From the NCBI GenBank assembly GCA_031409955.1, contig JANNYF010000012.1, positions 25,927 through 89,926 on the forward strand: a stretch of DNA of 64,000 nucleotides, given 5' to 3'. The translations under genes were made by a program, and so were the position numbers. This DNA is from Blastocatellia bacterium (GTDB taxonomy: Bacteria > Acidobacteriota > Blastocatellia > RBC074). Positions 7,443-35,178 of this stretch are shown here, one piece after another (within the stretch, counting starts at the first letter, position 1; each line of letters opens with the position of its first letter). A model generated the notes under the pieces. It had not been told where the DNA came from. It did not search any database and was given only the letters and a program-made list of their open reading frames with translations.

Positions 7443-10400
7443 ATGCGTTTATTAACCCTGCTCGCGCTCCTTTGCTGTTGCCACTTGGCCTTTGCCCAAA
7501 CCAATGCAGCCCTTTCTGGCACAGTCACCGATAAAACCGAAGCAATGATTCCTGGGGCGACCATCATCGCCGAACACGTTAAGACAGGCGTCAAAAACAC
7601 GACGACTTCGAACGATTCAGGCGTGTACTCGTTTCCGACGTTGCAACCGGGCGTGTACCAAATCTCAGCAGAAAAACCAGGCTTCAAGAAATTGGTCATG
7701 ACGAATTTCGGCTTGGAAATCTCGGCGCGCGCGAGCCTCAATCTGGCGCTCGAAGTTGGCGAGATTACGGAAAGCTCTGTCAACATCAGTGCCGCTGTTG
7801 ATACCGCGCTGGCGCTCGGCACAAATTCTGTGGGCGGCGTCATCAATGGACAGAAGGTGCAAGAACTGCCCTTGCCCGGACGCGATGCGTTGGGCTTGGT
7901 GTTGACCCAGGCGGGGCTGGTGGGCAGCAACTTTGCGGGCGCGCGCATCGGCACGCTGAACGTCTCGCGCAACGGCATCAATGTGATGGATCAGCGCATC
8001 AATTCCGGCGTGAACTCTACGTTTTTTAATAGCGTGGATACAGTGGATGAAGTCAAAGTTATTACGTCCCCCGCTGACGCCGAATACGGGCGCGGCTCCG
8101 GGCAGGTTCTGATTACGACCAAATCCGGCGGCAATCAATTTCACGGCAGCGTCTTCAACTTTCATCGCAATACCGCGCTGAATGCTAACACGTGGTTCAA
8201 TAACCTGCAGGGCATTCCGCGCAATACGTTGATTCGCAATAATTATGGCGGACGATTGGGCGGTCCGATCTGGTTTCCCAAGAAAGCCTTTGGCCCCATG
8301 AACTATGACGGACGCAATCGCAGCTTCTTCTTCGTTGCCTTTGAAGGCACGCGCGAACGAGCGAAAGCACCAACGACGGTCACTGTCTTCACACCAACGG
8401 CCAAACAGGGAATTTACCGCTTTTATCCTGGCGTCCGAAACGGCAATGCCAATGCGGCGGTGCCGACCGTTGATTTGTCCGGGAATCCGATCAAGCCCGC
8501 AACAGCGACAGGCGACTTGCAAGCCATCAACCTCTTTGGACGTGATCCGCTGCGTTCGCGTCCTGATCCCACGGGGCTGGTGCAAAAACAACTGGCCGCG
8601 ATGGCACTTCCGAATAACTATCGCTTTGGTGATGGGCTGAACACCGCTGGGTATACGTGGGTGCGACCCTTCACGTTTGATTCCAATCAATTGACGATGC
8701 GCTTCGATCATCAATTCACCTCGAGTCATCGCGTCTCGGTGGAATACCTGCGCGAAACAAATGGCGGATTGAATCAATTCCTGGCGCAACCGTTGCCGGA
8801 TTCGCCGGGCGGGTCGTATCAAGACAACACGAATTTTTATTCGATCTCGTACATTGCTACGCTTTCGCCCCGGTTAGTCAACGAAGTACGCGGCGGTGCT
8901 TCCCGCACATTGATTCGCTTTGAAGCGCCGTGGGAGTCGTCAAGCGGGCGTGCTTTTTTACCCTCGTCAAATAATCAAATCTATGTGCCGGTCTACCTTT
9001 CGGTCACGACGCCCATCAATCAAAGCAACGATCCGCAAGGCCGGATTTCGCCTCTCTATCAATACAGCGACACAATCACCTGGTTGCGCGGCAAGCACAA
9101 TTTCAAAGGTGGCGCAGAGGTTCGCTTTGCCAGCACGAACGGCTTTAATTCCTTTACGGTGTTGCCGCGTGCGGCGATTGGAGTGGGCGGCCCTGCCATT
9201 ACCAATATTTCCACTATCCCAAACATTGGATTGAATTTGGGAGGGGCGCAAAACATGCTGAATGATTTGACCGGCTCGCTCTCGACGATTCAACAAGCCT
9301 TCAATTCGCCCGGCGGACAATCCCCGACCTTCCTCGCTGGCGAAGGCAAACAACGCACGTGGCGGCAGCGTGAATTCAGTTTGTTTTTCAAAGACGATTA
9401 CAAAGTGAGACCAAATCTGACGCTGAATCTGGGCGTGCGTTACGAATATTACGGCGTTCCGTGGGAGGCCAACGGCAAGACGGCGGGACTCGTCAATGGC
9501 TCCGCTGGCATCTTCGGAATTTCCGGGACAGGCTTTGCCGATTTGTATCAACCGGGCCGCAACAACGGGCAATTGACGCAAATCAAATTGGTCGGCAAAA
9601 AATCGCCGAATGGGGGCGAACAACTCTACCGTGACGATTGGAATAATTTTGCGCCAGCGGTCGGATTGAGTTGGTCACTGCCGTGGTTGGGACGAGATAA
9701 GACGGTACTGCGCGTGGGCTACGGTATTGGATATGAACGCAATTCGCTGCGGTTATTGGATGTCGTCGCGGGCGATCAACCGGGCTTGCGCACGGTGACG
9801 ACTTTTCGGCAAACCGCCTATCTGGATTTGTCCAAAGTGGTCTTGCCGCTCACGCCCGACGTGGCCCCGTTGACGACTGTGCCGTTGACGGATCGCACAC
9901 AAACTGTCCGCGCATTTGATTCCAACCTGCGCACCCCGTATGTCCAGAATTGGAATCTCTCGATCCAGCGCCAATTGTCATCCAACTTCGCGTTGGATGT
10001 ACGGTATGTCGGCAACAAAGGGACCAAGCTGATTCGCGGCGCGAATATCAACGAAGCCAATATCTTTGAGACGGGGATTCTGGAAGCCTTCAATGCCGTG
10101 CGCGCAGGCGGGACGCATCCATTTTTGGAAAACATGTTTCGCGGTTTGAATCTCGGTTCTGGTGCTATCAACGGTACAACGGTTACAGCAGGGCAATCGC
10201 TCCGCGCTAGCACGCAAACGCAAGGGTTTTTTGCGAACGGCAATGTAGGCGGTTTTGCCAACTTCGTGAACAGCACCAATCTGTTCACGGGCGTGGCGGG
10301 AGGGTTGTTGCGCCGCGCAGATTTGCCGGAAAACTTTATCGTTGGCAATCCGCAATTCGCAGCGGCGAATCTGACGGGGAACTACGCGAACTCCACCTAT

Positions 10401-11219
10401 CATTCATTGCAGGTGGAATTGACCAAGCGTCTTGCCAACGGCTGGACGTTGCAAAGCAATTACACGTTCAGCAAAGCCATCGGTGAAGAAGAAGGCGCGG
10501 GGCAAGAGCAATTGGATAGCTACCGCAACGGCCGCAATCGGCGGTTGGACAAACGGCTGATGAGTTTTCATATCCCGCACGTGTTGCGCAACAGCGGCAC
10601 ACTTGAGCTGCCTTTTGGGCCGGGTCGTAAATTCTTGAGCAGCGGAAATCGCGTCGTCGCGCGCCTGGTGGAGCGCTGGCAATTCGGGTTGATTTACAAC
10701 CTGTTCTCCGGCTCGCCGCTGGGCATTAGTTCCGGCGTCTCCTCGTTCAATCAATTCACCGACAACACACCCATGTTGGTGGGCAACTTTGCGCCCAACC
10801 TGGGCAAGATCAAGCGCGTAGACAATGGCGTGATTTTCTTTGATGGGTTGAAGCAAATTGCTGATCCTGCCATTGCCAACGTGACGACTTCGCAAAATCT
10901 GCGCGCTTTGAGTACGTTGCAAGCCATCACGGATGCCAATGGACAAGTCTTGCTCGTCAATCCGACGCCCGGTCAGTTGGGCAATATTCAGCAGTCCTAT
11001 TTGGTTGGCCCCGGATCATTTCGCTTTGACATGAATTTGATCAAGCAAATCCGATTCCGGGAAAAGGCGAATTTCGAGATGCGGCTGGATGCCATCAATG
11101 TTCTGAATACGCCGCAATTCGGTACGATTAACACGGACATCAATTCGACGAACTTTGGACGTGTTACGAATGCGGGCGGTACTCGCCTGTTCGCCGCTTC
11201 GTTGCGGATTAACTTCTGA
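7443..11219 (+). CDS. TonB-dependent receptor-like outer membrane protein with N-terminal CarboxypepD_reg domain
   Basis: Signal peptide, then GTVTDKTEAMIPGATIIAEHVKTG...GVYSFPTLQPGVYQISAEKPGFK (carboxypeptidase regulatory-like fold). About 1250 aa with a C-terminal beta-barrel ending in the aromatic residue F. A hallmark Acidobacteria family. Confidence 0.85.
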   Translation: MRLLTLLALLCCCHLAFAQTNAALSGTVTDKTEAMIPGATIIAEHVKTGVKNTTTSNDSGVYSFPTLQPGVYQISAEKPGFKKLVMTNFGLEISARASLNLALEVGEITESSVNISAAVDTALALGTNSVGGVINGQKVQELPLPGRDALGLVLTQAGLVGSNFAGARIGTLNVSRNGINVMDQRINSGVNSTFFNSVDTVDEVKVITSPADAEYGRGSGQVLITTKSGGNQFHGSVFNFHRNTALNANTWFNNLQGIPRNTLIRNNYGGRLGGPIWFPKKAFGPMNYDGRNRSFFFVAFEGTRERAKAPTTVTVFTPTAKQGIYRFYPGVRNGNANAAVPTVDLSGNPIKPATATGDLQAINLFGRDPLRSRPDPTGLVQKQLAAMALPNNYRFGDGLNTAGYTWVRPFTFDSNQLTMRFDHQFTSSHRVSVEYLRETNGGLNQFLAQPLPDSPGGSYQDNTNFYSISYIATLSPRLVNEVRGGASRTLIRFEAPWESSSGRAFLPSSNNQIYVPVYLSVTTPINQSNDPQGRISPLYQYSDTITWLRGKHNFKGGAEVRFASTNGFNSFTVLPRAAIGVGGPAITNISTIPNIGLNLGGAQNMLNDLTGSLSTIQQAFNSPGGQSPTFLAGEGKQRTWRQREFSLFFKDDYKVRPNLTLNLGVRYEYYGVPWEANGKTAGLVNGSAGIFGISGTGFADLYQPGRNNGQLTQIKLVGKKSPNGGEQLYRDDWNNFAPAVGLSWSLPWLGRDKTVLRVGYGIGYERNSLRLLDVVAGDQPGLRTVTTFRQTAYLDLSKVVLPLTPDVAPLTTVPLTDRTQTVRAFDSNLRTPYVQNWNLSIQRQLSSNFALDVRYVGNKGTKLIRGANINEANIFETGILEAFNAVRAGGTHPFLENMFRGLNLGSGAINGTTVTAGQSLRASTQTQGFFANGNVGGFANFVNSTNLFTGVAGGLLRRADLPENFIVGNPQFAAANLTGNYANSTYHSLQVELTKRLANGWTLQSNYTFSKAIGEEEGAGQEQLDSYRNGRNRRLDKRLMSFHIPHVLRNSGTLELPFGPGRKFLSSGNRVVARLVERWQFGLIYNLFSGSPLGISSGVSSFNQFTDNTPMLVGNFAPNLGKIKRVDNGVIFFDGLKQIADPAIANVTTSQNLRALSTLQAITDANGQVLLVNPTPGQLGNIQQSYLVGPGSFRFDMNLIKQIRFREKANFEMRLDAINVLNTPQFGTINTDINSTNFGRVTNAGGTRLFAASLRINF

Positions 11220-13473: not shown

Positions 13474-13552
<79 letters not shown>

Positions 13553-13565
13553 TTATTTCAAGCAG

Positions 13566-13600
13566 TGAAGGCTTCCAATTGGAAGCCTTTTGCTTTTGCA
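13566..13600 (+). terminator. Rho-independent terminator after tRNA-Pro
   Basis: Perfect palindrome gaaggcttccaattggaagcctt followed by ttgcttttgc. Confidence 0.6.
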
Positions 13601-13691: not shown

Positions 13692-14570
13692 TTAATTGAG
13701 TTCGACCAACTCAATCGCCACCATATCTGGCCCTTCAATCAGGGCTGCCCGCATTTGGCTTTTGCCGAAGCGATGCGGTTCTTCCAGGATTTTCACGCCT
13801 TCTTTCCGCAATCGTTCCAGCGTGGCGTTGAGGTTGGGGACGCTGAGGGCAATGTGATCTACCACGTGTCCACGTGAGCTGACAAGCGCTTCAGGACGTT
13901 GGCGGGGGTAGATAATCAGACTGACTTCGCCAAATCGAATGGTGGTGGCTGGCGAGCGAATTACGCCGAGCGGTTCGCTTGGCGCGGCGAAAGGGACTTC
14001 GCACGCGCCTGTGCGTTGTGCGCGGCTCGTTGCGCCGAGATGTTTGATATACCAATCAGCAGCGCAGAGCGGCGCGGCGCTGACTAAATGGACGTGCAGA
14101 AACGCGCGCGTGTTGGCTGTATTGATTTCAACCAGAGCGTTGTCCGGCGCTTTCAGATAGGCGAAGAGCAAGTTGGCATTCAAGCGCGTCAGTGGCGTGG
14201 CAAAGGTGATGCCGTTGGCGAGATGCTTTTGATAATCGCTCTCCATCGCCGTACTGCCCCAGCCAAAATGCCAGATCGCGCTGTCCAATGAAGCGATGGG
14301 GGGCTTGCTCACTTGATTGAAGAGCAAGTGCATTTTTTCGCTTTGCACGCTCTCCCAGCCTGCTAGTGACGCTTTCTTCGTTACATCAAAAGTTTTTGTA
14401 TAGAAATCAATCGCGGCGGGCGGATTGGTGGAATTCAAGTGAACGTGATGGAAGCCAATGGGCGCAGGCGTTTCCTGCGCCTTTGCGATAAAGACGATAA
14501 GAATTGCCACAATGAGGCAAGGAAGAAATGGGAAGCCGTACGATAGACAATCCTTCCACTGCTTTTTCAT
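13692..14570 (-). CDS. Secreted two-domain VOC (glyoxalase/bleomycin-resistance/extradiol dioxygenase superfamily) protein
   Basis: Signal peptide, then two VOC-like halves (FHHVHLNSTNP..., HVVDHIALSVPNLNATLERLRKEGVKILEEP). Start taken at MKKQWKD. Confidence 0.6.
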   Translation of the reverse strand: MKKQWKDCLSYGFPFLPCLIVAILIVFIAKAQETPAPIGFHHVHLNSTNPPAAIDFYTKTFDVTKKASLAGWESVQSEKMHLLFNQVSKPPIASLDSAIWHFGWGSTAMESDYQKHLANGITFATPLTRLNANLLFAYLKAPDNALVEINTANTRAFLHVHLVSAAPLCAADWYIKHLGATSRAQRTGACEVPFAAPSEPLGVIRSPATTIRFGEVSLIIYPRQRPEALVSSRGHVVDHIALSVPNLNATLERLRKEGVKILEEPHRFGKSQMRAALIEGPDMVAIELVELN

Positions 14571-14590
14571 GGAGGTTCTCTTTCTCCGGT

Positions 14591-15139
14591 TCATTCGGCC
14601 TTGCGAAACCACGGATTGCCGAAATTGGTATACGGGCCATTGTCCACGGAAATCTGTACGAGCAAGCGGTAATGAGCGGGAGAGAGCATCAATGTTTTGC
14701 CTTTCAACTTGATCGTTTTGCCGTTTTTCTTGAGCGGCTCTGTTTCCCAGAAAATTGTGTAATACCCGCCGAGGTCGCCGCCAATTGGGCCGACTTTTTT
14801 CAGCACTAAATTACCGAACAGCCCGGTTTCAGACCGTGTGACCTGTTTCTGTTTCTCGTTGTAATCGGTAGTCGCGCGGCCTTTGAGGATGCCGCTCGGC
14901 CCTTCGCCTTCGATGATGCTTTCGTATTTTCCGTCGGCAATTTTCTTGTAGGTTTCTTTGCCCTTGAGCTTGCCTGCCGGGCCAAGTGGAGATTCAGGTA
15001 CGTTCCATTCAAACGTCCACGCGCCCACAAAGTAATCCATGTTTGGCGGTGGCGTTTGGTCAGTCGGCTCGGTTGGACGCGACGGTTGTTGCGGTGCTTG
15101 TTGGAATAATAACAAGGCTAAAATCAGGGCTTTAATCAT
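14591..15139 (-). CDS. Secreted hypothetical protein (DUF1579-like)
   Basis: Signal peptide [12 protein letters not shown], a Pro/Thr-rich linker and a roughly 140-aa beta-rich domain. Family assignment tentative. Confidence 0.5.
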
Positions 15140-15147
15140 AGGTTTTA

Positions 15148-15246
15148 GTGGTCGGTGGTCGGTGGCCGGTGGCTGGTGATCCGTTGTTGGTTATTAGTTG
15201 CAAAGGGAACCCATTGCTGACCACCGACCACCGTCCACCGACCACC
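15148..15246. repeat. Family C hairpin repeat built of GGTCGGTGG units (imperfect long inverted repeat)
   Basis: gtggtcggtggtcggtggccggtggctggtga ... tgaccaccgaccaccgtccaccgaccacc. A second member lies at 56880-56960. Confidence 0.5.
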
Positions 15247-15248
15247 AA

Positions 15249-16679
15249 TTATTTGCTCGCGCTCTGCGATGGTTTCGTTAAGACCTTGCTGTCAACGGTG
15301 TACTCAAACCACGGGATAAACATCTCATCCCAACTCTGCTCGCTCCAATAGACTTCCTTGTTGGGCGCGGGATTGTAGCGGTTCTTGATTGAGTTGTCGT
15401 AATGCGCAACCGCCTGAATCCGGCTTCCGGCGGGAATCTTGAGTGGTTCTTTTAGCTCATAATGCAACTGCCAATTGAAATCGAACTTCGGCACATAGAG
15501 CAAAACCTGCTTGCGACCATCCGGCCAAATCAACGTGTATTTGATGTCTTTGCCGCGCAAGTGCATGTGCGGCGCAAAGGCATACAACGTGATCGCTTCT
15601 TTGATCGGTGTTTCGGCGCTGATTTCCCAGTTGTCTACACGGGGCGGAATGTTCGGAATCCTGCCGCGCACTTTGACTTCTTTGCCGTTGACTGTGCGGG
15701 TCTCTGCTAACTCTTTGCCTTCGATGAAAACATTGTCCGTGACGCCTTTGGTCAGTACTTCGTACTTGGGCGGTTGCTTGGCAAACCAAAGCCCTAAACG
15801 CGAGCGATCTTTCTCCGCACGACCACTCGGTTGATAGTGCATATTGAACTGAACGTACATGCCCGGCAGGATGCGTTTCGCCGTACCTGCGGGATGTTTC
15901 TCAAAGCCCTTGCCCGGCGCTTGTCCGACTAACTTGAATGCGCCGGAACGCGTGAACGAATCCTGACTCTGCGCCACTTCGCGTGTTACGCCTTCACTCA
16001 GTCCACCGGTCTCACGGGCGGATTGGCTGTTGAGTGCCGAAGTGGCTCCATCCGCACGAACGGCTCTGCCATTGACGATCTTTGCGCCTTCCGGCAGCCG
16101 CACGACGTTGGCGATGGAGTGATGCACGACGGCTGGATTGCCGGGGCGAAGTTCGACTTTCTCGACCCATCGTTCTTCATTGAAGGGAAGCGGCACATAG
16201 AAGTTTTGCATCGGCAATTCGCCCTCCGCAGGAACTTCAAAATCAATCGGCATTTCGATGACTACATCTGGTTCGCCGAACGTCCAACCGGGCGTGTAAT
16301 TCGGCATCTTGGGCAAGTCTTTGTCATCGCCTTTTGGCGCGCCTGCGTCTACCCAAGTCGTGATGAGCTTGATCTCTTGTTCGGATAAGCGACGGTCGTT
16401 GCTGAAGTGGGCGGTCGAGATGTTTGGATCAGCAAACCACGGCGGCATCGTCCGTTCGACGACTTCTTCGCGGATGGCTTTGCTCCACGGACGCACTTCG
16501 GCATAAGACGTCAGCGGCATCGGCGCGACTTCGCCGGGGCGATGACAGTTGGCGCATTTGTTGAAGATGATGGGCGCAACGTCTTTGGTGAAGGTCACGC
16601 CAGCGGCTTCATTTTTGTTCACGAACCAAATAGTCGCGGCGCTTAGAACTGCGAACAGAATGATGGACAATCGTTTCAT
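15249..16679 (-). CDS. Fusion protein: N-terminal mono-heme cytochrome c domain plus DBH/PHM-like (copper type II monooxygenase-like) domain
   Basis: RBS ggagg precedes ATG at 16679. Signal peptide. CANCH heme-binding motif. Downstream HH...(about 70 aa)...H...(about 66 aa)...HMH...(about 75 aa)...DEMF spacing mirrors the PHM/DBH CuH (H,H,H) and CuM (H-x-H, Met) sites, with a conserved YDFNWQ. Confidence 0.65.
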
Positions 16680-16690
16680 GGCGTACCTCC

Positions 16691-18007
16691 TTAGCGGCTT
16701 GAACTGCTGGCAACTTGCGGCTGCGCTTTGCGCAAATCCTGTTTGTCGAGCGTGTAATCTACATACCCGATCATCATTTCTTCCCACGTCTGATCGCCCC
16801 AACGAACCGTTGCCGTTGGATCAGGATTGAATTTATTTTTCGGCGAATTGTCGTAATGGGCGACACAAATGAGCTTGCTGCCTTTCGGCACGGCGAGTTC
16901 TTCTTTTAGCACATACGTTAACTGCCAGCCAAAATCATAGCGCGGCACCGACAGAATGACTTTCGACGTGCCATCAGGATAGACGAGCGTGTATTTGAAA
17001 TCTTTGCCGCGCACGTGCATGTGTGGATGCAAACTGTCAACGTGGCTGTCTTCTTTGAAGACCATTTCAGAAATGACTTCGTGATTGTCTGCACCGGGCG
17101 GAATGGCAAAACTGCTTTGCACCGCGCCCGCCGTAATGACACGTTTCTGCACGGGTTCTTTGGCGAAGATTAAGCCAATGCTGGTGCGGTCTTTGCCCAC
17201 TTCGCCGTTCGTGGTGTAGTGAATCTGGAAGATCAGCACCGAACCTTTCTTGACGAGTTTGGCTTGACCGTTGCGCAGTTCCAGCGGCGCTTCACCCGGT
17301 GCCCATCCGACCAGACGGCCATCTGAATCGGCGGGACGTTCACTTGAACTTCGACGAACTGAAGCGAGGTCGGCGGGATTGATTTCACCGGGCTTCGGCA
17401 AATCGCCTTGATCCGGGTAACGCACGCTTACGATGACGTGATGCAAATGCGCGCGATCACCCTGTCGAATCTCAGCGAATTGCACATACTTGTCTTCGGT
17501 GAAGTTCGTCGGCACCGCGAAATATTTGTACGGAATGACGCCTGTGACGGGAATGTTGAATTCGGTCGGCATCGTCAGCACGACGTCTGGTTGCCCGATT
17601 TGCCAGCCCGTTGTGTACGTTGGATTGGGCGGCATATCTTTCGGCTCACCTTCTTTCGCGCCGCCCTCAACCCAGGCCACAATCGTATCAATCTCTTTTT
17701 GTGACAGGCGCGCATTGTTGGAAAATTCACCGTGATTGGGATCGGCGAACCACGGCGGCATGACGCGGGAAACGACCTGTTCACGGATGGATCGTGCCCA
17801 CGGGCGCACCTCTTTGTAGTTCATGAAAGACATTGGCGCGACTTCGCCGGGACGATGGCACATCTGGCAATTTTTTTGAATGATCGGTGCCACATCTTTG
17901 GTGAACGTCACAGTTGCGGCAGACGTTTGCCGCAACAAGACAGATGATAATCCGATGCCGAGCATTGCAATCGCGCCCAACACACACAGGAACAAAGTAC
18001 GTTTCAT
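16691..18007 (-). CDS. Fusion protein: cytochrome c domain plus DBH/PHM-like copper monooxygenase-like domain (tandem paralog)
   Basis: CQMCH heme motif. [17 protein letters not shown] and TWEEMM motifs at the same spacing as the downstream paralog. 11-nt gap to the next gene. Confidence 0.65.
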
Positions 18008-18141
18008 ATTGAACCTCTTAAATAATCTGCGAGCAGAGAAACTGAAATCGGAGCCAACAGCATCCGAACTCTAATACCGTCTTCCAGTCAGTGGAAGAAA
18101 AATTTCAATTCAAGACAGCTACGTGCGCCAGATGTGCCAGG

Positions 18142-18576
18142 TTACTTGCTGTCTTTTGACTTTGATCCAAGGCTGCGCAGGAATAGCACAACCTGCCAAA
18201 TTTGCTTGTCGTTCAACTTTTCTTTGTAGGCCAGCATATCCGCCGAAACGCCTTCTTTGACAGCCACAAAGATTTCACCATCGGTTGAACCGTAATCCCA
18301 CGCGTCATCCGTTAAGTCAGAAGGCGTGCCGCCCGACAACGCCATCCCGCCATCGCCTTTGCCATTCGGCCCGTGACACGAAGCGCAATAACGCGCATAA
18401 ACCTTCTTGCCTGCATCAATCGTTTCTGCGTTGCTCGGTTCTGGGTTCTTCAGCTTCTGCGCCTCCGCATTGCGGCGTGGTTCTTGCGATGCGTTCGCCG
18501 CTACTGCAACAAAGATCGCCCCCACCGCCAGCAGCCGACCGACCACCGACCAATTACTATTCCTGTGGTACATCAA
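18142..18576 (-). CDS. Class I c-type cytochrome (soluble/anchored mono-heme)
   Basis: Signal/anchor helix, then [17 protein letters not shown] (CxxCH) and a distal Met-containing segment. Confidence 0.8.
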
Positions 18577-19036
18577 AATTCTCCACTAAATACTCTGGGT
18601 GCATTTCGCGCAGGTACAAGAACAATTCGTGCACCAGATTCACCAGCCGATTCACCCCATACGCGTACTCATCGTTTTTGACCTTGAGCGAGATGGACAC
18701 CGCACCGCGCTGATTTGTACAAGACAACACGGCGCGCGCACGATCAATGCGCCGATGCTCCGGCAATTCGCCAGCGTGTCGCTCCGCCAAAAAGGTTTTC
18801 AATTCGCCGTACAATTCTGAACCCGTCGGAATGCCCGGCAGCAGTTGCTTGAAGCGCAACACCTGCTTTTCTGTATCTGCGATCAATTCCATCTCGCGGC
18901 GTAAGAGCCAAACGAAGGTGAACTGCCCGTTCTTGTCTTCACTGAAGCCGCGAAAGACGCCACGATCTGCGTAGGCTTGTAAACTTTCTCTGACTTCATC
19001 CAGAGGCTTATGGGTTCGTTTGGGAGCCGTTTTCAT
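18557..19036 (-). CDS. Hypothetical protein translationally coupled to doc
   Basis: ATG at 19036 overlaps the doc TGA stop in an ATGA arrangement. No recognisable motif. Confidence 0.45.
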
Positions 19037-19470
19037 ACACCTAACAGATTTTGAAACCAATCAGCTATTTCTGGAATTGTGCGCGGTGACATGTTTTCAC
19101 CGCGTGACTGGCGCAGATTTTCTTCTGCCAGCGAAACGCAGAAATCAATCACATCATTGATCGGTAACTTCTCCGGGATCACGTACCCGCAGTTGTCGAG
19201 AAAAAAGATCGCTGCTGCGAAGGCCGTTCGTTTCGTCCCGTCCATAAATGGATGGCTTTTGACCAGCGAATGAAACAGCGCAGCAGCCTTTTCAAAATCG
19301 GTTTCGTAAAGCTCCTGCCCGCCGAATGCCGCAAAAGGTCGTGCCACCGCCGAATGCCGCATCGTTGCTTCGCGCAATCCTACAATGCCGCCTGTTTCCG
19401 CGATGATGACCTCGTGTATTTCATAGACACGGACGAGTAAATTAGCGACCTCATCGGCATAATCAGTCAT
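19033..19470 (-). CDS. doc: Doc (death-on-curing) / Fic family toxin
   Basis: Fic/Doc signature [15 protein letters not shown]. About 145 aa. Immediately downstream of a small RHH-like gene. Confidence 0.8.
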
Positions 19471-19475
19471 CGGGG

Positions 19476-19697
19476 TTACCGTTGCGCCAGGGTCTCAAAT
19501 AGTTCACGGTTTTGCGTAATTAACTGCCGCACGAACGGGATGGCGCTTTCACTAAAGCGGCTACCGTTTGCTGTCGGTTGCTGCGCCAGCCAGATTTCTA
19601 CGGCAGCGATTGCAACGGCTTCCACATCTTTTTCAGGAATCGCGCGCGTGCGCAATTGTTCGGTCAAGGTTTCAGGTAATTCGATTGTTAGTGTCAT
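19476..19697 (-). CDS. Ribbon-helix-helix/Phd-like antitoxin
   Basis: 73 aa. N-terminal TLTIELPETLTEQLRTRA is RHH-like. 5-nt gap to doc. Confidence 0.55.
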   Translation of the reverse strand: MTLTIELPETLTEQLRTRAIPEKDVEAVAIAAVEIWLAQQPTANGSRFSESAIPFVRQLITQNRELFETLAQR

Positions 19698-19709
19698 GTC
19701 TTTACCCCG

Positions 19710-21653
19710 TCAGTGATTATACGACATGCAACCTGGTTCGACCGTGCCTAAAAAGCCCGGCTCATATTGCTGCCTGACCCAGAATTCTTTCTTCGCCTGA
19801 CAGTTGATGAGCGATGGCCGACTCTCTTTCACCGCGATTTGATAACAGCGTTCCAGCGCCGCGCGGAAATCACCCGGCTGGGTGACGTACTCGCCGTGCG
19901 CGCCGAGTCCTTCCGCGACTTTGTCATAACGCACGTTCTCTTGGAAGAGCTGTAAGCTCAGCGTCACGGGGCTGCGCGCGTTGCCCGTCCACGTGCCCCA
20001 GGCGTTGTTGTTGTAGACGATGACGATGATTGGCAGGCGATACTTCGAAGCGGTTTCGAGTTCCATGATCGTGTAGCCAATGCCCGCATCGCCCGTGACC
20101 GCAATCACTGGCGCGCCTTTGTACGCAGCTTGCGGGCCGATGCCGTGTCGCACCGCTACCGCCGCGCCGATTGCATAGCCGACATCCGGCCCGATATTGC
20201 CGTACTGATAAGCGCCGTTGAGAATCTGGCCCGGACGATAGCCACGCATCCGGCGGCGCACATAACGCGCGATGCCATAGCCGCCTGCGACAAAGGTCGT
20301 CTGTTCTTTGGGCAGCTTGCCATTGTACATAAAGTCAGTCAGCTCTTTGGCAATCACCGCCGGATGCACGGCGTCGGTGTAGCTCAAACCCTTCGCGTAA
20401 TGAGCATCATTCTCGTCCTCGAACTTTTTGCGCGCGGCAGCAATCTCCGCCACCCACGCATCGTGCTGCATTTTGGGCATTGCGTCAGCGAGTGCTTCCA
20501 AGGCGGCCTTTTCGCAACTGACCAGGCCAACATCAATCGGCAGATTACGGCCAATGTCTTCCACGCTGGGATCAATGCGGATGTATTTCGCATCCGGCCC
20601 AAAAGCGAAATCAATCACCGTCGGCATGCAGTACTGACCAACCAACATCACAACATCGGCGCTCGCCAATGCACCCGGCGACGCATTGGCCGAGAGTGGG
20701 CTTGCATCGGAGAATTGCCCTTTCATCGCGCCCGATTCAACCACCGGAATCTGCGCCTTTTCGGCCAGCGCCTTCAGTGCATCCCACGCGCGGCTGTAAA
20801 AGACGCCGTTGCTGGAAACGATGATCGGGCGCTGCGCCTGTTTGAGTAACTCGACCGCCGCCGCGACATCCTTCGGTCCCGGATGCGGCTTCGCAGTGGT
20901 ACGGTAGTGGGTCTTGTCATAGTAGTAATTCAAATCGCTCGCCGTTTTGAAGCTGGCACGCGCAACTTCAGCCGGAAAGTCCAGATGCACTGGGCGCGGA
21001 ATGCCGGAGCGCAACTGCCGAAACGCATACGCGCCATATTCATGCACACGGGCGGGCGTGATCAGACGTTTGCCGTATTTCTTCAAACCTTCGGTGGTTG
21101 GTTGCTGATATGCGAACTGGTTACCCGCCTCAGCGTCCTCTTCCAAGATTGTCTTGTTACTGGCCAGGACCAGCACCGGCGAGCGCGCTGCGTTGGCGGT
21201 GGCAATAGCGTTGATCATATCGGTAAAGCCAGGCCCTTCCGTACCCGAAGCCGCCGCGACCTCGCCCGTCACACGACAGAAGCCATCGGCAGCGGAGCAC
21301 ATCGCGCCTTCGTGCCGACCCGAGTAGGCCGGGACGCCTTCGAGTGCGATGGCGTTTATGATGGGATAATTGCCTGGACAACAGAACAGCGCGGCCAAGC
21401 CTTCTTCCTTGCAGATGCGGGCAAAGACCTGTGCGCCTGACATCGGAAAGGTTGCTTTCACGGGCGGCACGGCAACCGCTTTCGCAAACTCGTCAGGAAC
21501 TTTGATGGCGTTGGTTTCCGCCGCATGGGCTGGCTGATTCACCAGCGTCGCGGCAGCCGTCGCGCCCACGCCCGTCATCGCCTTGCGCATAAATTTTCTG
21601 CGTGAAACATCGGGTGCGGAGTCTTTTCCTGTTGGGTTGGTGATGTCATCCAT
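19710..21653 (-). CDS. Thiamine diphosphate-dependent enzyme (acetolactate synthase/benzoylformate decarboxylase superfamily) with twin-arginine (Tat) signal peptide
   Basis: RBS aggaaa precedes ATG at 21653. [30 protein letters not shown] Tat-type signal. Three-domain ThDP fold with the [15 protein letters not shown]...NN ThDP-binding motif. Confidence 0.8.
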
Positions 21654-21914
21654 AACTATTTTCCTGTTCAAGTACGGAACGAAGTAGGTTCGGCGATTAT
21701 GAATTCGCGTAAGTTGTTCGCAAAACTTCAGAATGTCAGTAACGGTTGTTTTCGGTAGCGCTTGATTGAATGCTTGCCCAGATGAAAATCCGCCCAGAAT
21801 ATACGCCCAACTAAACTACTTTTGCAATGAGTTGCTGACCGTCCGGTAAGCATAGTAGGATTCTCGCTCGTTCACCTTCTGGCGCAAATATTCAATTACT
21901 TACAGGAGACAGTG

Positions 21915-23846
21915 ATGAAGCTACCCCGCAGGTTATTTTTGACAGTCCCGCGAAGCACGTTCACGACCATTGTCATGCTTGTGATTCTTGCGGGCTTCTG
22001 TTGGTATGAGGCCATTGCTCCGGCAGCCGCAAACCTCAACATCAACCCATCTTCATTGAGTAATCTGCCCGCTTTGCAACAAGCCGCTGTCGCCACTTCG
22101 CCCGAAGGCGAGGCCATTTACAAACAACGATGCGCAGTTTGTCACGATAATCCCGGAGATCGGATTCCGCCGCTGTTTCTCATTCGGCGTCGTTATGCTG
22201 AAGACGTCATACAAACTCTCACCAGCGGTTCGATGAAGCAACAGGCGGCGGGGCTGAGCGCGGAGCAGATTAAGGCATTGGCGCTGCACTTGACTGGAAA
22301 GCAGCCGGGGCTACCTTTGCAGTTAAATAACAAAGTCAATCTTTGTGGTGGAACGCCTGTGCAGCTTAACCTCAAAGCGCCAAACTGGAATGGATGGGGG
22401 CGTGATTATGACAACTCGCGCTTTCAGCCGAAGCCGGGCCTCAAAGCCGAAGACGTGCCGCGCCTAAAAGTGAAATGGGCGTGGGCGCATCCGGGGCCAA
22501 TGGCGACAGGGCAGCCGACAATCATCGGAGATCGTTTGTATGTCACGACCGAGATGGGACAGCTTTATTGTCTCAACGCGCAAACAGGTTGCACCTATTG
22601 GACGATGAATGCGGGCGCAACAGTGGTGGCGGCGATGAGTGTTGGTGCCTTGCCCGCCGGATCACCGGCTAAATATGCCGTTTATTTTGGCGATGCGAAA
22701 TCCCAACTCCAAGCGGTGGATGCAATGACCGGCAAACTGTTGTGGAAGACCAAGGTGGAAGATCATTTTCTGGCCCGCATCACAGGCGCACCTGTACTCT
22801 ATCGCAATCGCATTTATGTGCCGGTTTCGTCGTATGAAGAAACGGCTGGACGCGATCCCAAATACGAATGCTGCAAGTTTCGCGGCAGCGTGGTGGCGCT
22901 TAATGCAAACACCGGCAAGATCATCTGGAAAACGTTTACGGTGCAAGAGGAGCCGAAGCCTTTCAAGAAGAATTCAACCGGCACACAAATGTATGGCCCG
23001 GCAGGAGGCGCGATTTGGTCTGCGCCGACACTTGATGTGAAGCGCAATGTTTTGTACGTCGGCACAGGCAATTCGTACACGGATGTTGAGACGGGCCAGA
23101 CCGATGCGATCATGGCGTTTGATCTGACCACCGGCAAAGTGAAATGGACGAATCAACTCACCCCGAAAGACAACTACCTCGTCGGTTGTCGGCAACCCGG
23201 CGTGGGCAATTGTCCGAAAGAAGCTGGCCCCGATTACGATTTCGGCAGTTCGCCCATTTTGCGCACCCTGCCCAACGGCAAGCAGATTCTGATCACAGGG
23301 CAGAAGTCTGGCGCTGTCTACGGCCTTGACCCGGACAACAATGGGAAGAAAATTTGGGAGGCCAAAGTTGGCGGCGGCGGTGCGCTCGGCGGGATCGAAT
23401 GGGGCTTTGCGGCGGACGCGGAAAATGTGTATGTGCCGATGGCCGATGTAGGTGGGCCAAACCGCAAACCCGGGATTACGGCCTTGCAGATTGCGACAGG
23501 TGCAAAACGCTGGTATGTGCCTGCTCCCCCGGCAAAATGCAATTGGGGGACGACCCGTTGCAATAACGCCCAATCCGCCGCCGCGACGCTTATCCCCGGC
23601 GTCGTCTTTTCCGGCACGATGGATGGTCACTTACGCGGATACGCCACCAAAGACGGCACAATCCTTTGGGATTACGACACTGCCGCGCCCATCCAGACAG
23701 TCAACGCCGGTCTGACGAAAGGCGGCACGCTGGATGGTGGCGGGCCAACGGTGGCGAATGGGGTACTGTATACCAATTCCGGCTACGGTCGAATCGTCGG
23801 GCAACCGGGGAATTTGTTGTTGGCCTTTACCGTAGACGGCAAGTAA
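21915..23846 (+). CDS. PQQ-dependent dehydrogenase with N-terminal cytochrome c domain (polyvinyl-alcohol dehydrogenase-like quinohemoprotein)
   Basis: RBS caggagac. N-terminal anchor/signal, CAVCH heme motif, then an 8-bladed PQQ beta-propeller with W/G motifs. N-terminal heme placement matches PVA-DH-type quinohemoproteins. Confidence 0.75.
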
Positions 23847-27914: not shown

Positions 27915-29678
27915 CTATGGAGTCCTCGCGGACAGCACAACTCGCAACCCGATATTGTTGAGGCTGGTGACGCCGGGCTGAATAACGGAGCGGCTGGCGG
28001 AGTGGCAATAAATAGCGCTGCGGCCCCACGCCCCGCCCCGCACTACCCGCTTACTATTATCGTCTCCCGTCACCCAGGCGCTTCCGTCACTCGGCGCACC
28101 GGCATAATTTTCGTGCCACATATCTTCGCACCACTCCGCCACGTTTCCATGCATGTCATATAACCCAAATCCATTCGCCACCCCCAGACTTCCCACTGAC
28201 TTGGTGCGAAAACTATCCTTTGCGGCTTGCTGGTTGAGATAGATCCCATTGTAATTCTCAATCTGAGTGCTGAGCGTATCGCCAAAGGCAAACGCAGTTG
28301 TCGTCCCCGCGCGTGCGGCGTATTCCCATTCGGCTTCGGTGGGCAGCCGATAATTGTGTCCGGTTCGCGCGCTCAGTTTGCGGCAGAACTCCTGTGCCTC
28401 TTCCCAACTCACTTGTTCTACGGGCAGATCCATATCGCCTTTGAAATGGGCGGGATTGTTGCCCATGATTGCTTGCCACTGCGCCTGTGTCACCTCATAG
28501 CTGCCCATCGCAAACCCGCTGACGCGCACTTGATGCTGTGGCTGGTTATTAGTGAACCACCCGAGTTGCGCGTATTTGTCGTAGCGTTTGGCTTCTGCAA
28601 AAGCCTTTTGTGCTGCGCTGTTGGTCGAACCCATCTGAAATGTCCCGCCCGGAATTTCCACCATCGGTAATTTCACGCCGTTGCCCAAATCTTCGACGAA
28701 GCCCCAGCCTTGGTCTTGCCGTTGGTTCACGACGTTTCCATTCACCTCTACGCTGGCGGTCACAAAGCTCATGGCTGCGAGTGGCACGCCTGCCACACTC
28801 ATCCGCACCGTTGGCTTCGTGACGGGCGGCGCAGTCGCAGTTACGGGCGTGGGTATGATTACTGGCGGTGGTGGCATAGCACTATTGGGCGGAAGGAAGT
28901 AAAAATCTTCGCCTTCAACCGAGGTGTATTCATACGGCACTTGCTGACCGCCCGATTTGCTGCGCACGCTGGTGCGGGTGCGGCGGAAGACGGATTCCAA
29001 CGTCAGTCCCGGTGTCTTCAGGTTCGTCAACAGTTCTTGCGTGAAGAGTCCGTTGCGGCCTGCGCCATCGCTGGCGACATTATTCTCGGCGGTAGCATAC
29101 GCGACCAGGGTTCCGGTGGGTGCGCCGCGCGTTATGGCTAACCCGCGTGACTCCGTGCGGAAGCTGCGCGCAAACGGATTGTTGCGGCAGGCATCGAGAA
29201 TCACGATGTTGAGCTTGTTGCGTGCATCCTCCATTTGTGCCAGTACGAAATTCACGCTGACGGATTCATCTTCGACTTCGGTGTCTTTGGTGATCTCTGC
29301 GCCCACGGGAATCATGAAATTTGTGTTGTTCACCTGCACACCGTGCCCGGCGAAGTAGAACAATCCGACGCCACCGTTGCGAATCTTCTCGCCAAACTGA
29401 CGGATCAACTCGCGCATTTGTTTCCGATTTTGGTCCGCCCCGTGCAGCACTTCAAACCCGGCGGTACGCAATGTGGCCGCGATGTCGTGCGCATCGTTGA
29501 CGGGATTCGTCAGTGAGCCTTGCGCATACGCGCCGTTACCGATGACGAGCGCGATGCGTCGTTCGTTCGGGGTTTGTCGTATCACGTTGAGACTCCGATC
29601 CTGCTGGGCGTGAGAAATCATCTGTGGCATCAGCGCGATGACACAAAATAGGGTGAGAACCAATCTGCCAAGATACAT
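27915..29678 (-). CDS. Secreted caspase-like (peptidase C14) domain protein fused to a formylglycine-generating-enzyme (FGE/SUMF1) type domain
   Basis: RBS ggaga precedes ATG at 29678. Signal peptide. IALVIGNGAYA...HG...FYFAGHG...DACRN caspase His/Cys dyad context. C-terminal RLPTEAEWEYAARAG...GLYDMHGNVAEWCEDMW...VVRGGAW FGE-sulfatase motifs. Confidence 0.8.
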   Translation of the reverse strand: MYLGRLVLTLFCVIALMPQMISHAQQDRSLNVIRQTPNERRIALVIGNGAYAQGSLTNPVNDAHDIAATLRTAGFEVLHGADQNRKQMRELIRQFGEKIRNGGVGLFYFAGHGVQVNNTNFMIPVGAEITKDTEVEDESVSVNFVLAQMEDARNKLNIVILDACRNNPFARSFRTESRGLAITRGAPTGTLVAYATAENNVASDGAGRNGLFTQELLTNLKTPGLTLESVFRRTRTSVRSKSGGQQVPYEYTSVEGEDFYFLPPNSAMPPPPVIIPTPVTATAPPVTKPTVRMSVAGVPLAAMSFVTASVEVNGNVVNQRQDQGWGFVEDLGNGVKLPMVEIPGGTFQMGSTNSAAQKAFAEAKRYDKYAQLGWFTNNQPQHQVRVSGFAMGSYEVTQAQWQAIMGNNPAHFKGDMDLPVEQVSWEEAQEFCRKLSARTGHNYRLPTEAEWEYAARAGTTTAFAFGDTLSTQIENYNGIYLNQQAAKDSFRTKSVGSLGVANGFGLYDMHGNVAEWCEDMWHENYAGAPSDGSAWVTGDDNSKRVVRGGAWGRSAIYCHSASRSVIQPGVTSLNNIGLRVVLSARTP

Positions 29679-29910
29679 TGTTGCAATCTCCTGATGGAAC
29701 CAAGTATTGCTGAGCGATGCGCATTTTACACATCTCTCAAAATCAATGCACAGGAAAATTGGAACTCGGTACGGTACGAGGAGCGGTGGCAACTGGATAC
29801 TCTAGGTCTCTCAACTCGCTACCGCTCGCCGTACTCTACCGATTCTTCCGAAGTTTGCTACAATGCGCCCTCTTGCAATCCAAATATAGCAACGATTGAG
29901 GAACTCATCC

Positions 29911-34500: not shown

Positions 34501-35178
34501 CGATGCGCCGTAGCCTAATTCTGCTCCCGCATTCTGCGTCGTCAACGTGAATTCGCTGACGTCATCTACGTTCGGGCGTTCGACCGAAAAGCTCGAAGCG
34601 TTGGCGCGAATGTGGTTGTCCTGAATGTTGATGCCGTCGCGTGTGATGTTCGTGAAGGTCGGGCGCTGACCATTGATTGATGTGCCTTGCGCGCCGTTGG
34701 ACGCGGTTCCGGCTTGCAGCAAAATCAAGCTTGTCGGGTCGCGCCCGTTGAGCGGCAGTTCGACGATTTGGCGCGGGCTGACGGTGTTGCTGATTTGCGG
34801 GTTCGTGGCGTTGAGCAAATCCGCGCCCGCCGTGATGGTCACGCTTTCCGCCGCCAGACCAATTTCCAGCCCCACGTTCAGCGAGTATTCCTGCCCAATA
34901 TCAATCTTGACGTTTTTCGCGTTGAAGGTTTTGAAGCCGTTCACGGTGACGGTGACGTTGTACGCGCCGGGATCAAGTTGCGGCAGGAGGAACGCGCCTT
35001 CGCCGTTCGACGTAATGGTGCGTTCTTTGCCCGTTTGATTGTCCGTGACCTTCACGGTTGCGCCGGGCAACACGCCGTCCGGCCCTGACACCGTGCCGAT
35101 CAAGCGACCTGTGTTAGACTGCGCAATGGCTGCTGCAGTGAGCAACAGCAGCATTGCAAAGGAGATGATTTTCTTCAT
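31531..35178 (-). CDS. TonB-dependent receptor-like OM protein with CarboxypepD_reg N-terminal domain
   Basis: Signal peptide, GTVSGPDGVLPGATVKVTDNQTGKERTITSNGEGAFLLPQLDPGAYNVTVTVNGFK, about 1215 aa, C-terminal F. Confidence 0.85.
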   Translation of the reverse strand: MKKIISFAMLLLLTAAAIAQSNTGRLIGTVSGPDGVLPGATVKVTDNQTGKERTITSNGEGAFLLPQLDPGAYNVTVTVNGFKTFNAKNVKIDIGQEYSLNVGLEIGLAAESVTITAGADLLNATNPQISNTVSPRQIVELPLNGRDPTSLILLQAGTASNGAQGTSINGQRPTFTNITRDGINIQDNHIRANASSFSVERPNVDDVSEFTLTTQNAGAELGYGASQVQFVTPRGQNAFHGSAQLYNRNSEFAANRYFNNASGTAKAFLNRNQFGGKISGPIIKNKLFFFGFYEGLRTRTQSTQVRTILTPSARLGNFTYLDNTTAANGGPVLRTVNLFTLLGNAGLPGIDPIVSSRILANVPAVGNAVDRGDQRNTTGYRFNQRSNTDTDKYTGRFDYEVSDKHTVSGVLSYTNEKVNDRPDVDSPSGYLSTPTIVQPSTRKFTSVAWRWTPSATFTNELRSGAFLSDPFFARVKAEPAFYLTLPLINNPEVNQQEQGRDTANYNLQDNAERQWGNHALRFGGQSQFVTDFTSAKFDTVPRFTLGTNTNTPSFIAGNFTGGISTAQLGTANGLLALLGGIVGTGTQTFNAATRTSGYSSGAAAAFDYAFDVHSLYLSDQWRATPRLTLTMGLRYELYTPLREKQGLALEPYIAPGQTVLQAVLDPNGKVDFINGYGNNKLHKTDKNNFAPVLGFAYSPNFQNKFLSSVFGSGGKTVVRGGFRMSYVNDEILRSQDSSQQTNAGLSTGVTLANLNARLGSVPTINAPAFALPRTFLQNNQIAANFGAVFAIDPNYQIARSNEYSFGIQRELGFQTALEVRYVGGQSNNLPRGLDINNFDMNTNGFLADFNRARANLLLTGNAGCTTAGCQTLTVFPKFAAGGLLTNATIANTIRAGDPQTLLLTYVQNGLQGTVPLRANENAGTISILENGGKYNYNSLQIELRKRFSNGLYFQTNYTFQKVLTNATGTDQFKFNTNLDNARPELEYSRADYDQTHVFNVNAIYELPFGNGKKWLNHSGTINRVFGGFQLTSIMNIATGAPLTFVDVRGTLNRVSRSGRQTPQTNLSKSQIKDLIGIHKTACGVYYINPSVINLNQTTCAGTGRAAEGLGSTAFAGQAFFNNGPGQTGTLERAFINGPLYLNWDASIIKNIQMTETTRLQLRVEAFNVLNRANFSLSGASQAGTGAMFDINSATFGRFSGTFSPRIVQLVGRFEF

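Follow-up and report, generated by a model that had tools for sequence, protein, structure and literature searches.

A candidate extracytoplasmic oxidation system around a conserved Tat-signal ThDP-dependent enzyme in Blastocatellia

To our knowledge, enzymes that depend on thiamine diphosphate (ThDP) are regarded as cytoplasmic or organellar. What, then, is the task of a ThDP enzyme that carries a signal for twin-arginine translocation (Tat), and do the redox genes around it belong to the same system? The question is raised by a 64,000-nucleotide stretch of the genome of a Blastocatellia bacterium, a soil acidobacterium (assembly GCA_031409955.1, contig JANNYF010000012.1, positions 25,927 to 89,926), which we call the window and in which position 1 is the first letter. 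Nine genes lie on its minus strand at 13692–21653, and the gene of a quinohaemoprotein of the pyrroloquinoline quinone (PQQ) type is transcribed divergently from them (21912–23846, plus strand), across a region of 258 nt. An earlier examination of the letters alone, referred to here as the sequence-only reading, had described these genes as looking like a set of tools for oxidizing, hydroxylating and cleaving an extracellular polymer or xenobiotic. The list of open reading frames (ORFs) and the Pfam and NCBIfam scans confirmed all the genes it had named. As argued below, the region is probably a conserved, functionally linked extracytoplasmic oxidation system built around three genes that stay together: those of the ThDP enzyme, a 159-residue chaperone-like protein and a monohaem cytochrome c.

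The ThDP enzyme and its two constant neighbours

The conservation of the cluster was examined in 80 related loci and three context lookups, and all proteins of the window were mapped by tblastn. Loci of the Blastocatellia type were counted as well flanked if 9 kb or more lay on each side of the ThDP gene (n = 24), and genes within 10 kb were counted as nearby. The Tat-signal ThDP enzyme, the 159-residue protein and the cytochrome c were found in 24 of the 24 well-flanked loci, with both the chaperone-like gene and the cytochrome gene nearby in 100% of them, the former always beside the ThDP gene and the latter adjoining it in every case. The trio also extends to 14 distant loci, at 57–62% identity, which are labelled Hydrogenedentota, Nitrospirales, Thermoanaerobaculia, Terriglobia, Limisphaerales, Opitutales, Rhodothermaeota, Devosia, Caulobacteraceae and Pseudomonadales. 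There the cytochrome gene adjoins the ThDP gene in 12 loci and the chaperone-like gene does so in 10. The cluster thus occurs in no fewer than six named lineages of bacteria besides that of the window.

The ThDP enzyme (647 residues; 19710–21653, minus strand) starts at ATG 21653, which gives the product recorded by NCBI. Its three domains, TPP_enzyme_N, TPP_enzyme_M and TPP_enzyme_C, all pass the Pfam cutoffs with E-values of 1e-22 to 1e-25. The protein stays below every NCBIfam cutoff (the best score was 211 against 587 bits, and all 25 matches listed were far below) and fits none of the named families: oxalyl-CoA decarboxylase (OXC), 2-hydroxyacyl-CoA lyase (HACL), acetolactate synthase, glyoxylate carboligase, Xsc and pyruvate oxidase (POX). 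In the PDB, E-values of 7e-45 to 1e-33 made oxalyl-CoA decarboxylases, 2-hydroxyacyl-CoA lyases and benzaldehyde lyase/formolase the best matches, and by sequence the enzyme is placed in the POX/decarboxylase superfamily, nearest to the OXC, HACL and benzaldehyde lyase branch. When the central domain was searched alone, its match to OXC/HACL reached 3e-18, against 4e-7 for the FAD-binding glyoxylate carboligase and 2e-4 for pyruvate oxidase. As it is far closer to the flavin-free OXC/HACL, flavin dependence and a mechanism like that of pyruvate oxidase were not adopted.

Members of this superfamily have a glutamate that activates the cofactor and a GDG-x(24-27)-NN motif that binds ThDP and Mg. 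Both the GRHEG motif with the activating glutamate and the ThDP-Mg motif TGDAG...VYNNN were invariant in 77 homologues of the enzyme, as was an unusual C-terminal tail, KKEFW...PG.LG..EPG.M.Y.H. No redox cofactor motif was visible in the sequence. A TPP riboswitch or another RNA element was sought upstream of the gene, but an Rfam search at E ≤ 0.1 gave only the tRNA-Pro and a weak hairpin. It should be noted that an apparent fusion of cytochrome and ThDP enzyme in one locus (L081) is an open upstream frame of low-complexity sequence.

The N-terminal extension of the enzyme is about 75 residues long and resembles that of a Tat substrate: the motif SRRKFMRK, of the S/T-R-R-x-F-L-K type, is followed by a hydrophobic region and by AHA (in AHAAE), an AxA-type site. 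The pattern S/T-R-R-x-F-[ILM] was present in 80 of 84 homologous loci, which include all the full-length ones and those of other phyla at 57–62% identity; the four exceptions are truncated or frameshifted matches. The Tat signal proposed for the enzyme was thus borne out. The enzyme has more than 120 close relatives at 77–88% identity, mostly in metagenome-assembled genomes of Blastocatellia, and is 73–88% identical across nearly all the Blastocatellia-type loci, with one at 66%. Meanwhile, a homologue on the Rhizobium leguminosarum plasmid NZ_CP071629.1 (L086, 7905–9746), which is 52% identical and located between short-chain dehydrogenase/reductase genes and a non-ribosomal peptide synthetase/TauD cluster, carries no Tat signal and represents a cytoplasmic sister branch of the family with a probably biosynthetic role. 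The export signal therefore defines the subfamily to which the enzyme of the window belongs.

The gene at 18557–19036 (minus strand) encodes the 159-residue protein, which has no match in Pfam or NCBIfam. Two independent methods assigned to it the alpha-beta fold of the CesT/SycH-like type III secretion chaperones. A profile search of 1.84 billion representatives yielded only 350 relatives, nearly all of them stand-alone proteins of 150–190 residues, and a signal peptide was absent from every orthologue. One database protein of 575 residues (P0404), in which the first 134 residues of this family are joined to an unrelated sequence containing CxxCH, seems to stem from a chimeric or frameshifted gene call and not from a genuine fusion, and it was set aside. 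Type III secretion chaperones bind extended N-terminal regions of exported proteins, and Tat proofreading chaperones bind the signal peptides of substrates that contain cofactors. From the modelled chaperone fold, the cytoplasmic location and the N-terminal extension of its constant neighbour, we infer that the 159-residue protein probably serves the ThDP enzyme as a dedicated chaperone for export or assembly. The sequence-only reading had seen it as a hypothetical protein coupled to the Doc toxin gene. It is indeed coupled to that gene, with which it shares an ATGA overlap (−4 nt), and it is a key conserved component with a fold like that of secretion chaperones.

The third member, a secreted monohaem class I cytochrome c (18142–18573, minus strand; Pfam Cytochrome_CBB3 and Cytochrom_C), has a CASCH motif and a signal-like N-terminus and shows weak NCBIfam similarity to the MoxG and PedF cytochromes. 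In the distant loci its counterparts are often a dihaem tandem, 36–49% identical to the cytochrome of the window. We propose that this cytochrome is the redox partner of the enzymes of the cluster. The pairing of the ThDP and cytochrome genes is constant even where copper and PQQ genes are not nearby, which suggests an exchange of electrons between the cytochrome and the ThDP enzyme itself. To judge from the sequence, a central domain of the flavin-free type would make any such transfer an unusual one.

A cultured and experimentally tractable carrier of the trio is Devosia naphthalenivorans, in which the order is ThDP enzyme, 159-aa-type gene and a 119-residue secreted cytochrome with a CTECH motif. 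Judged by eye, the trio lies there (L078, 7037–15883) between two groups of genes: one with a class V aminotransferase, a flavoprotein like D-amino-acid oxidase, a GntR regulator and a peptide ATP-binding cassette transporter, the other with a two-component system of the DctB/DctD type. These surroundings may hint at a 2-oxo acid derived from an amino acid as the substrate.

Copper, PQQ and other modules around the trio

In the window, the trio is embedded in a longer string. From the ThDP gene to the gene of a vicinal oxygen chelate (VOC) protein, the junctions calculated from the refined starts are +12, +5, −4, −17, +134, +11, +109 and +20 nt; the gaps and overlaps had all been called tiny, which is right for most of them but not for the two that exceed 100 nt. 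The refined starts of the ThDP enzyme, the 159-residue protein, the cytochrome c and copper protein 2 gave products identical to the proteins recorded by NCBI. Promoter and terminator scans gave counts equal to the shuffled expectation and were uninformative on operon structure. The location of the products was judged from motifs, hydropathy and conservation. Apart from the Tat signal of the ThDP enzyme, hydrophobic signal-like segments were found at the N-termini of the cytochrome c, both copper proteins, the DUF1579-like protein, the VOC protein and the PQQ protein, and in the last three they are kept in the inspected orthologues. The prediction that every enzyme is extracytoplasmic fits these seven products; the 159-residue protein, the 73-residue ORF and Doc have no such segment.

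The two copper monooxygenase-like proteins are encoded at 16691–18007 and 15249–16679 (both on the minus strand). They are 42% identical over the full length and share the same architecture, namely an N-terminal haem c and a two-domain core like that of peptidylglycine α-hydroxylating monooxygenase (PHM) and dopamine β-hydroxylase (DBH). Protein 2 starts at ATG 16679 after an AAGGAGG Shine–Dalgarno sequence and matches Pfam Cu2_monoox_C with 23.7 bits; its gene always follows that of protein 1 in related loci. The domain calls made for the pair from the letters alone, haem c and Cu2_monoox_C, thus hold. No sequence match to any PDB chain was detectable. The copper sites of PHM and DBH consist of three histidines (CuH) and of two histidines and a methionine (CuM). 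In 25 sequences, including both paralogues of the window, C47xxC50H51, M83, H189, H190, H263, H329, H331 and M411 were invariant. The local motifs HLHH, FQIHY, HMHVRGK and EEMM resemble, in order and spacing, what we take to be the copper-ligand motifs of PHM, VHHM, LQVHY, HTHHLGK and DEMC. As read from the sequence, the fused CxxCH domain suggests that electrons are supplied through a cytochrome in place of ascorbate. The family is very large (7982 of 8000 scored candidates at E ≤ 1e-5), and its members are named "cytochrome c" or "thiol-disulfide isomerase" in the source records.

Directly after copper gene 2, in the window and at 60–78% identity in related loci, comes the gene of a secreted protein of 182 residues (14591–15139, minus strand). 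Its likeness to DUF1579, noted before, is weak and stays below the Pfam gathering cutoff (17.9 against 25.2 bits, E 0.003), and no solved relative was found by a sequence search of the PDB. The last gene of the string (13692–14570, minus strand) encodes a secreted protein that is a genuine two-module member of the VOC superfamily (Pfam Glyoxalase, 4.3e-17 in two stretches). Its assignment to this fold family stands, but not the specific similarity to extradiol dioxygenases: no family of these was matched, and the NCBIfam and PDB searches gave weak matches of the glyoxalase/epimerase type, the only one in the PDB being glyoxalase 6bu2. Orthologues of the VOC protein at 62–77% identity occur in 12 of the 24 well-flanked loci. 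Their genes nearly always lie on the other strand, where they diverge from the ThDP gene or, past the DUF1579-like gene, have a convergent orientation.

The divergent quinohaemoprotein dehydrogenase has an N-terminal haem c (Cytochrome_CBB3, residues 65–127) and a PQQ propeller at residues 159–483 (PQQ and PQQ_2 families), which is the architecture of polyvinyl alcohol (PVA) dehydrogenases. It is distant from the solved quinohaemoprotein alcohol dehydrogenases (3e-19, over the first half of the propeller) and stays below the cutoff of TIGR03075 for methanol/ethanol PQQ dehydrogenases (124.6 against 480 bits, again for the first half of the propeller only). The "empty quinoprotein" family TIGR04528 was rejected (90 against 650 bits). 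Since its orthologues carry ordinary Sec-type signals, the RR in the N-terminus of the window protein is incidental.

These accessory genes accompany the trio less constantly. Among the 24 well-flanked loci, copper proteins 1 and 2 were nearby in 67% and 58%, the PQQ protein in 54%, and the DUF1579-like and VOC proteins in 50% each. The PQQ gene may follow the cytochrome gene, precede the ThDP gene or follow the DUF1579-like gene, and is mostly co-directional inside the cluster; the copper genes and their follower lie before or after the core, depending on the genome. The nine-gene string with its divergent PQQ gene is thus real here, but it is lineage-specific, one arrangement among many. That the modules stay close although their order is shuffled argues for selection on proximity and not for inherited synteny. 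Since dozens of genomes combine these same families, chance is excluded as the origin of the string. In three of the distant loci (L071, L079 and L083) the core is accompanied by two copper paralogues and by a PQQ dehydrogenase of a different subfamily, a combination that was seen beside the core in the Hydrogenedentota and Nitrospirales loci; L079 and L083 have an additional ORF for a secreted protein of 220 residues between the copper and PQQ genes. This independent recurrence is the strongest argument that the modules work together.

The toxin–antitoxin genes do not share this conservation. Doc itself (19033–19470, minus strand) was identified correctly: it matches Pfam Fic at 2.2e-15, scores 52.9 bits against the 38.65-bit cutoff of TIGR01550 (DOC_P1) and contains HPFMDGTKR. 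The 73-residue ORF (19476–19697, minus strand) had been labelled a ribbon-helix-helix antitoxin, a label that was not upheld, as the ORF has no match to a ribbon-helix-helix or Phd family or to any other Pfam or NCBIfam family at E ≤ 0.01; its putative role as an antitoxin comes from its position 5 nt upstream of Doc. The pair was nearby in 8% of the well-flanked loci, that is, in two of 24 (L043 and L046), at the junction between the ThDP gene and the 159-aa gene. Because it is so rare and because other inserts occupy the same junction elsewhere, we conclude that the pair is a lineage-specific insertion and not, as had been assumed, part of the gene unit. About 20 loci carry inserts at this junction: a 278-aa luciferase-like gene, a 248-aa gene, HicA/HicB, a pair of the nucleotidyltransferase type or the antitoxin/Doc pair. 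One locus has ParE/Phd between the cytochrome and PQQ genes. The toxin–antitoxin inserts lie at 19033–19697 in the window, 12840–13522 in L043 and L046, 9801–10234 in L048, 11990–12187 and 13968–14577 in L031, and 12872–13512 in L001. The junctions around the ThDP and chaperone-like genes look like a hot spot for the insertion of toxin–antitoxin genes in a conserved cluster. The 278-aa gene encodes a cytoplasmic luciferase-like protein (Bac_luciferase) and stands beside the ThDP gene in 17 Blastocatellia-type loci (for example, L005 11978–12814 and L004 6822–7679), in many cases precisely between that gene and the chaperone-like one. The whole window lacks this conserved gene, whose product may be an optional cytoplasmic component of the system.

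The limits of the cluster, 13692 and 23846, were set by unrelated flanking genes, with CdaA, YbbR and tRNA-Pro on one side and a peptidase of the dipeptidyl peptidase IV type and a nitronate monooxygenase-like gene on the other. Just past tRNA-Pro (13475–13551), a strong hairpin with a T-run at 13564–13599 was the top terminator-like match and also a weak Rfam match to ctRNA_p42d below the threshold (26.9 bits against the 50-bit cutoff); it is probably the terminator of the tRNA. Elsewhere in the window, a protein of 625 residues with caspase (Peptidase_C14) and FGE-sulfatase domains is encoded at 27915–29792, and three outer-membrane proteins of 1127–1258 residues with CarboxypepD_reg and OMP_b-brl_4 domains, which resemble TonB-dependent receptors, are encoded at 7443–11219, 31531–35178 and 35351–38734.

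Proposed reactions and rival explanations

In the mechanism that we propose, the ThDP enzyme would fold and bind ThDP and Mg in the cytoplasm and would then be exported through the Tat pathway, after the 159-residue protein had held or proofread its long N-terminal region. The soluble periplasmic cytochrome c would be its redox partner. The two copper monooxygenases, with their PHM/DBH-like core and accompanied by the small secreted protein, would receive electrons from the fused haem c and not from ascorbate, and the PQQ quinohaemoprotein would oxidize an alcohol and deliver electrons to the same cytochrome c pool. The order of reactions that we infer starts with C–H hydroxylation by the copper enzymes, continues with the oxidation of the alcohol by the PQQ enzyme and ends with the ThDP enzyme cleaving or decarboxylating the 2-oxo or α-hydroxy-carbonyl compound so formed. 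All three steps would take place outside the cytoplasm, with electrons cycled via c-type cytochromes.

From gene content and gene order, the functional linkage of the cluster genes is well supported. The comparison of synteny in relatives, which the sequence-only reading had suggested, sustained its claim that the genes work together: they have been kept together through rearrangements, and other phyla have analogous sets. This applies to the core and the modules but not to the antitoxin/Doc pair or to the order of the string. Several points weigh against the proposed system. By sequence, the central domain of the ThDP enzyme resembles the flavin-free type and offers no obvious cofactor for the transfer of electrons to the cytochrome c, and the cytochrome could serve another purpose than that of a partner of this enzyme. 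The copper, PQQ and VOC modules are absent within 10 kb in a third to half of the genomes and may be optional or separate. The modelled two-domain β-sandwich core of the PHM/DBH type in the copper proteins is only moderately confident (predicted local distance difference test score, pLDDT, of 67.6), and the equivalence of their H189, H190, H263, H329, H331 and M411 to the PHM ligands (H107/H108/H172/H242/H244/M314), drawn from a similar spacing in the sequence, is putative. The two gaps of more than 100 nt allow separate transcription of parts of the string.

In one rival view, the ThDP enzyme has no redox function and acts in the periplasm as a lyase or carboligase, in the manner of benzaldehyde lyase or cyclohexane-1,2-dione hydrolase, and the cytochrome serves only the PQQ and copper enzymes. 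The nearest solved relatives of the ThDP enzyme are indeed flavin-free lyases and decarboxylases, and its sequence shows no redox cofactor motif; yet in four distant loci (L069, L072, L075 and L078) the ThDP gene has cytochrome genes directly at its side, and the sequence examined contains neither copper nor PQQ genes, and we regard this explanation as possible but doubtful. It would also be conceivable that only the ThDP, chaperone-like and cytochrome genes form a unit and that the other modules perform unrelated periplasmic jobs and share no more than the ancestry of their gene order. Each accessory module is missing from the neighbourhood in 33–50% of the well-flanked loci, the VOC gene is on the opposite strand in most relatives, and with a copper family of such size some adjacency may arise by chance. 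Such independence is nevertheless unlikely, as proximity persists although the order is shuffled, the genes involved are orthologous pairs at 60% identity or more and not random paralogues, and distant phyla have independently joined two copper paralogues, along with a PQQ dehydrogenase from another subfamily, to the core.

The remaining explanation concerns the substrate. If the cluster degraded PVA, another synthetic polymer or a xenobiotic, the PQQ enzyme would oxidize the polymer, and the ThDP and VOC proteins would replace a hydrolase in cutting the oxidized chain. The PVA-dehydrogenase architecture of the PQQ protein, claimed from the letters alone, was confirmed by its haem c and PQQ domains and by its best match in PLSDB, a plasmid protein of 671 residues (43.5% identity, 89% query coverage, E 2e-149) that shares the N-terminal CxxCH domain and a CCKFRG motif. 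This protein comes from Sphingopyxis sp. 113P3, the reference PVA degrader, and its gene neighbours are a secreted hydrolase-like gene with a GxSxG motif, a major facilitator superfamily transporter and a c-type cytochrome. The match is plasmid-borne, however, whereas the characterized pva operon of this strain is on the chromosome (PMC4611681), so the match was not taken for a characterized PVA dehydrogenase and may be a paralogue of that enzyme. Moreover, no homologue of the hydrolase-like gene or of oxidized-PVA hydrolase was found in the 64-kb window, and little more than half of the loci (54%) have the PQQ gene no farther than 10 kb from the core. The high identity of the ThDP enzyme in loci from varied environmental metagenomes fits an old, common natural substrate better than PVA or a xenobiotic. 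Given this conservation in uncultured environmental lineages and the absence of a PVA hydrolase, a PVA or xenobiotic role is unlikely, which abandons the target first suggested for the cluster, and this explanation as a whole seems very improbable.

The proposed extracytoplasmic system could also be drawn more boldly. The ThDP enzyme might be a flavin-free 2-oxo-acid/aldehyde:cytochrome c oxidoreductase, acting for example on glyoxylate or on an oxalyl- or oxamate-type product, whose two electrons pass via the cytochrome c to the haem c of the copper proteins. Together with the PQQ enzyme, this would close a periplasmic loop in which a substrate is hydroxylated and dismantled without ascorbate, NAD(P)H or CoA, and a protein with the fold of type III chaperones would have been recruited to Tat export. 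We consider this version speculative and quite unlikely.

Literature searches gave nothing relevant on Tat-exported or periplasmic ThDP enzymes or on bacterial haem-fused PHM-like proteins. For the exported ThDP subfamily, its chaperone-fold partner, the pairing with cytochrome and the haem c-fused PHM-like pair, we found neither a describing paper nor a match to a curated family. With modest probability, the mechanism may be new in kind. If the proposed system is real, it extends the known periplasmic chemistry of bacteria, adds a cofactor class to the list of Tat cargo and points to a new type of Tat chaperone, and the haem c-fused PHM-like proteins would show how copper chemistry of this kind can run without ascorbate. 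Most of what is known of Blastocatellia comes from environmental metagenomes, and a cluster so conserved in them probably handles a common environmental compound. Identification of the substrate could expose an unrecognized step in the turnover of organic matter.

Comparison with known systems

Each protein of the cluster is from a known superfamily, and we class the whole as a variant of the periplasmic oxidation systems that are linked to cytochrome c. The ThDP enzyme has the same three-domain PYR/TH3/PP architecture as OXC, HACL and benzaldehyde lyase, with the activating glutamate, the GDx...NN motif and the same flavin-free type of central domain. Unlike these enzymes, it has the Tat-bearing N-terminal extension of about 75 residues and the conserved C-terminal tail, has a chaperone-like gene and a cytochrome c as constant partners, and is predicted to work in the periplasm, where CoA thioesters are not expected.

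Like the class I type III chaperones (CesT, SycH, Spa15 and ExsC), whose fold it shares, the 159-residue protein is small, acidic and cytoplasmic and is encoded beside the gene of an exported protein. Unlike the settings of those chaperones, the gene lists of the related loci contained no type III secretion genes, and the constant neighbour is a Tat-signal ThDP enzyme and not a type III effector. By analogy, its role may parallel that of the Tat proofreading chaperones TorD/DmsD and NapD, from which it differs in fold, TorD being all-helical and NapD ferredoxin-like.

The copper proteins differ from PHM and DBH in being bacterial and secreted and in occurring as a tandem pair of paralogues. 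They have a fused N-terminal c-type cytochrome, whereas PHM and DBH are supplied by ascorbate or by DOMON/cytochrome b561. The window and the Sphingopyxis pva operon both encode a soluble cytochrome c nearby (PMC4611681), but in the window there is no oxidized-PVA hydrolase, and the PQQ enzyme is an optional module beside the ThDP and copper enzymes. The cluster is similar to methanol dehydrogenase with cytochrome cL, to PedE/PedF and to the flavoprotein–cytochrome c dehydrogenases of acetic acid bacteria in that a periplasmic enzyme is encoded beside a dedicated small cytochrome c. In those periplasmic systems the cytochrome goes with an enzyme of the PQQ, flavin or molybdenum type, whereas its constant partner in this cluster is the ThDP enzyme.

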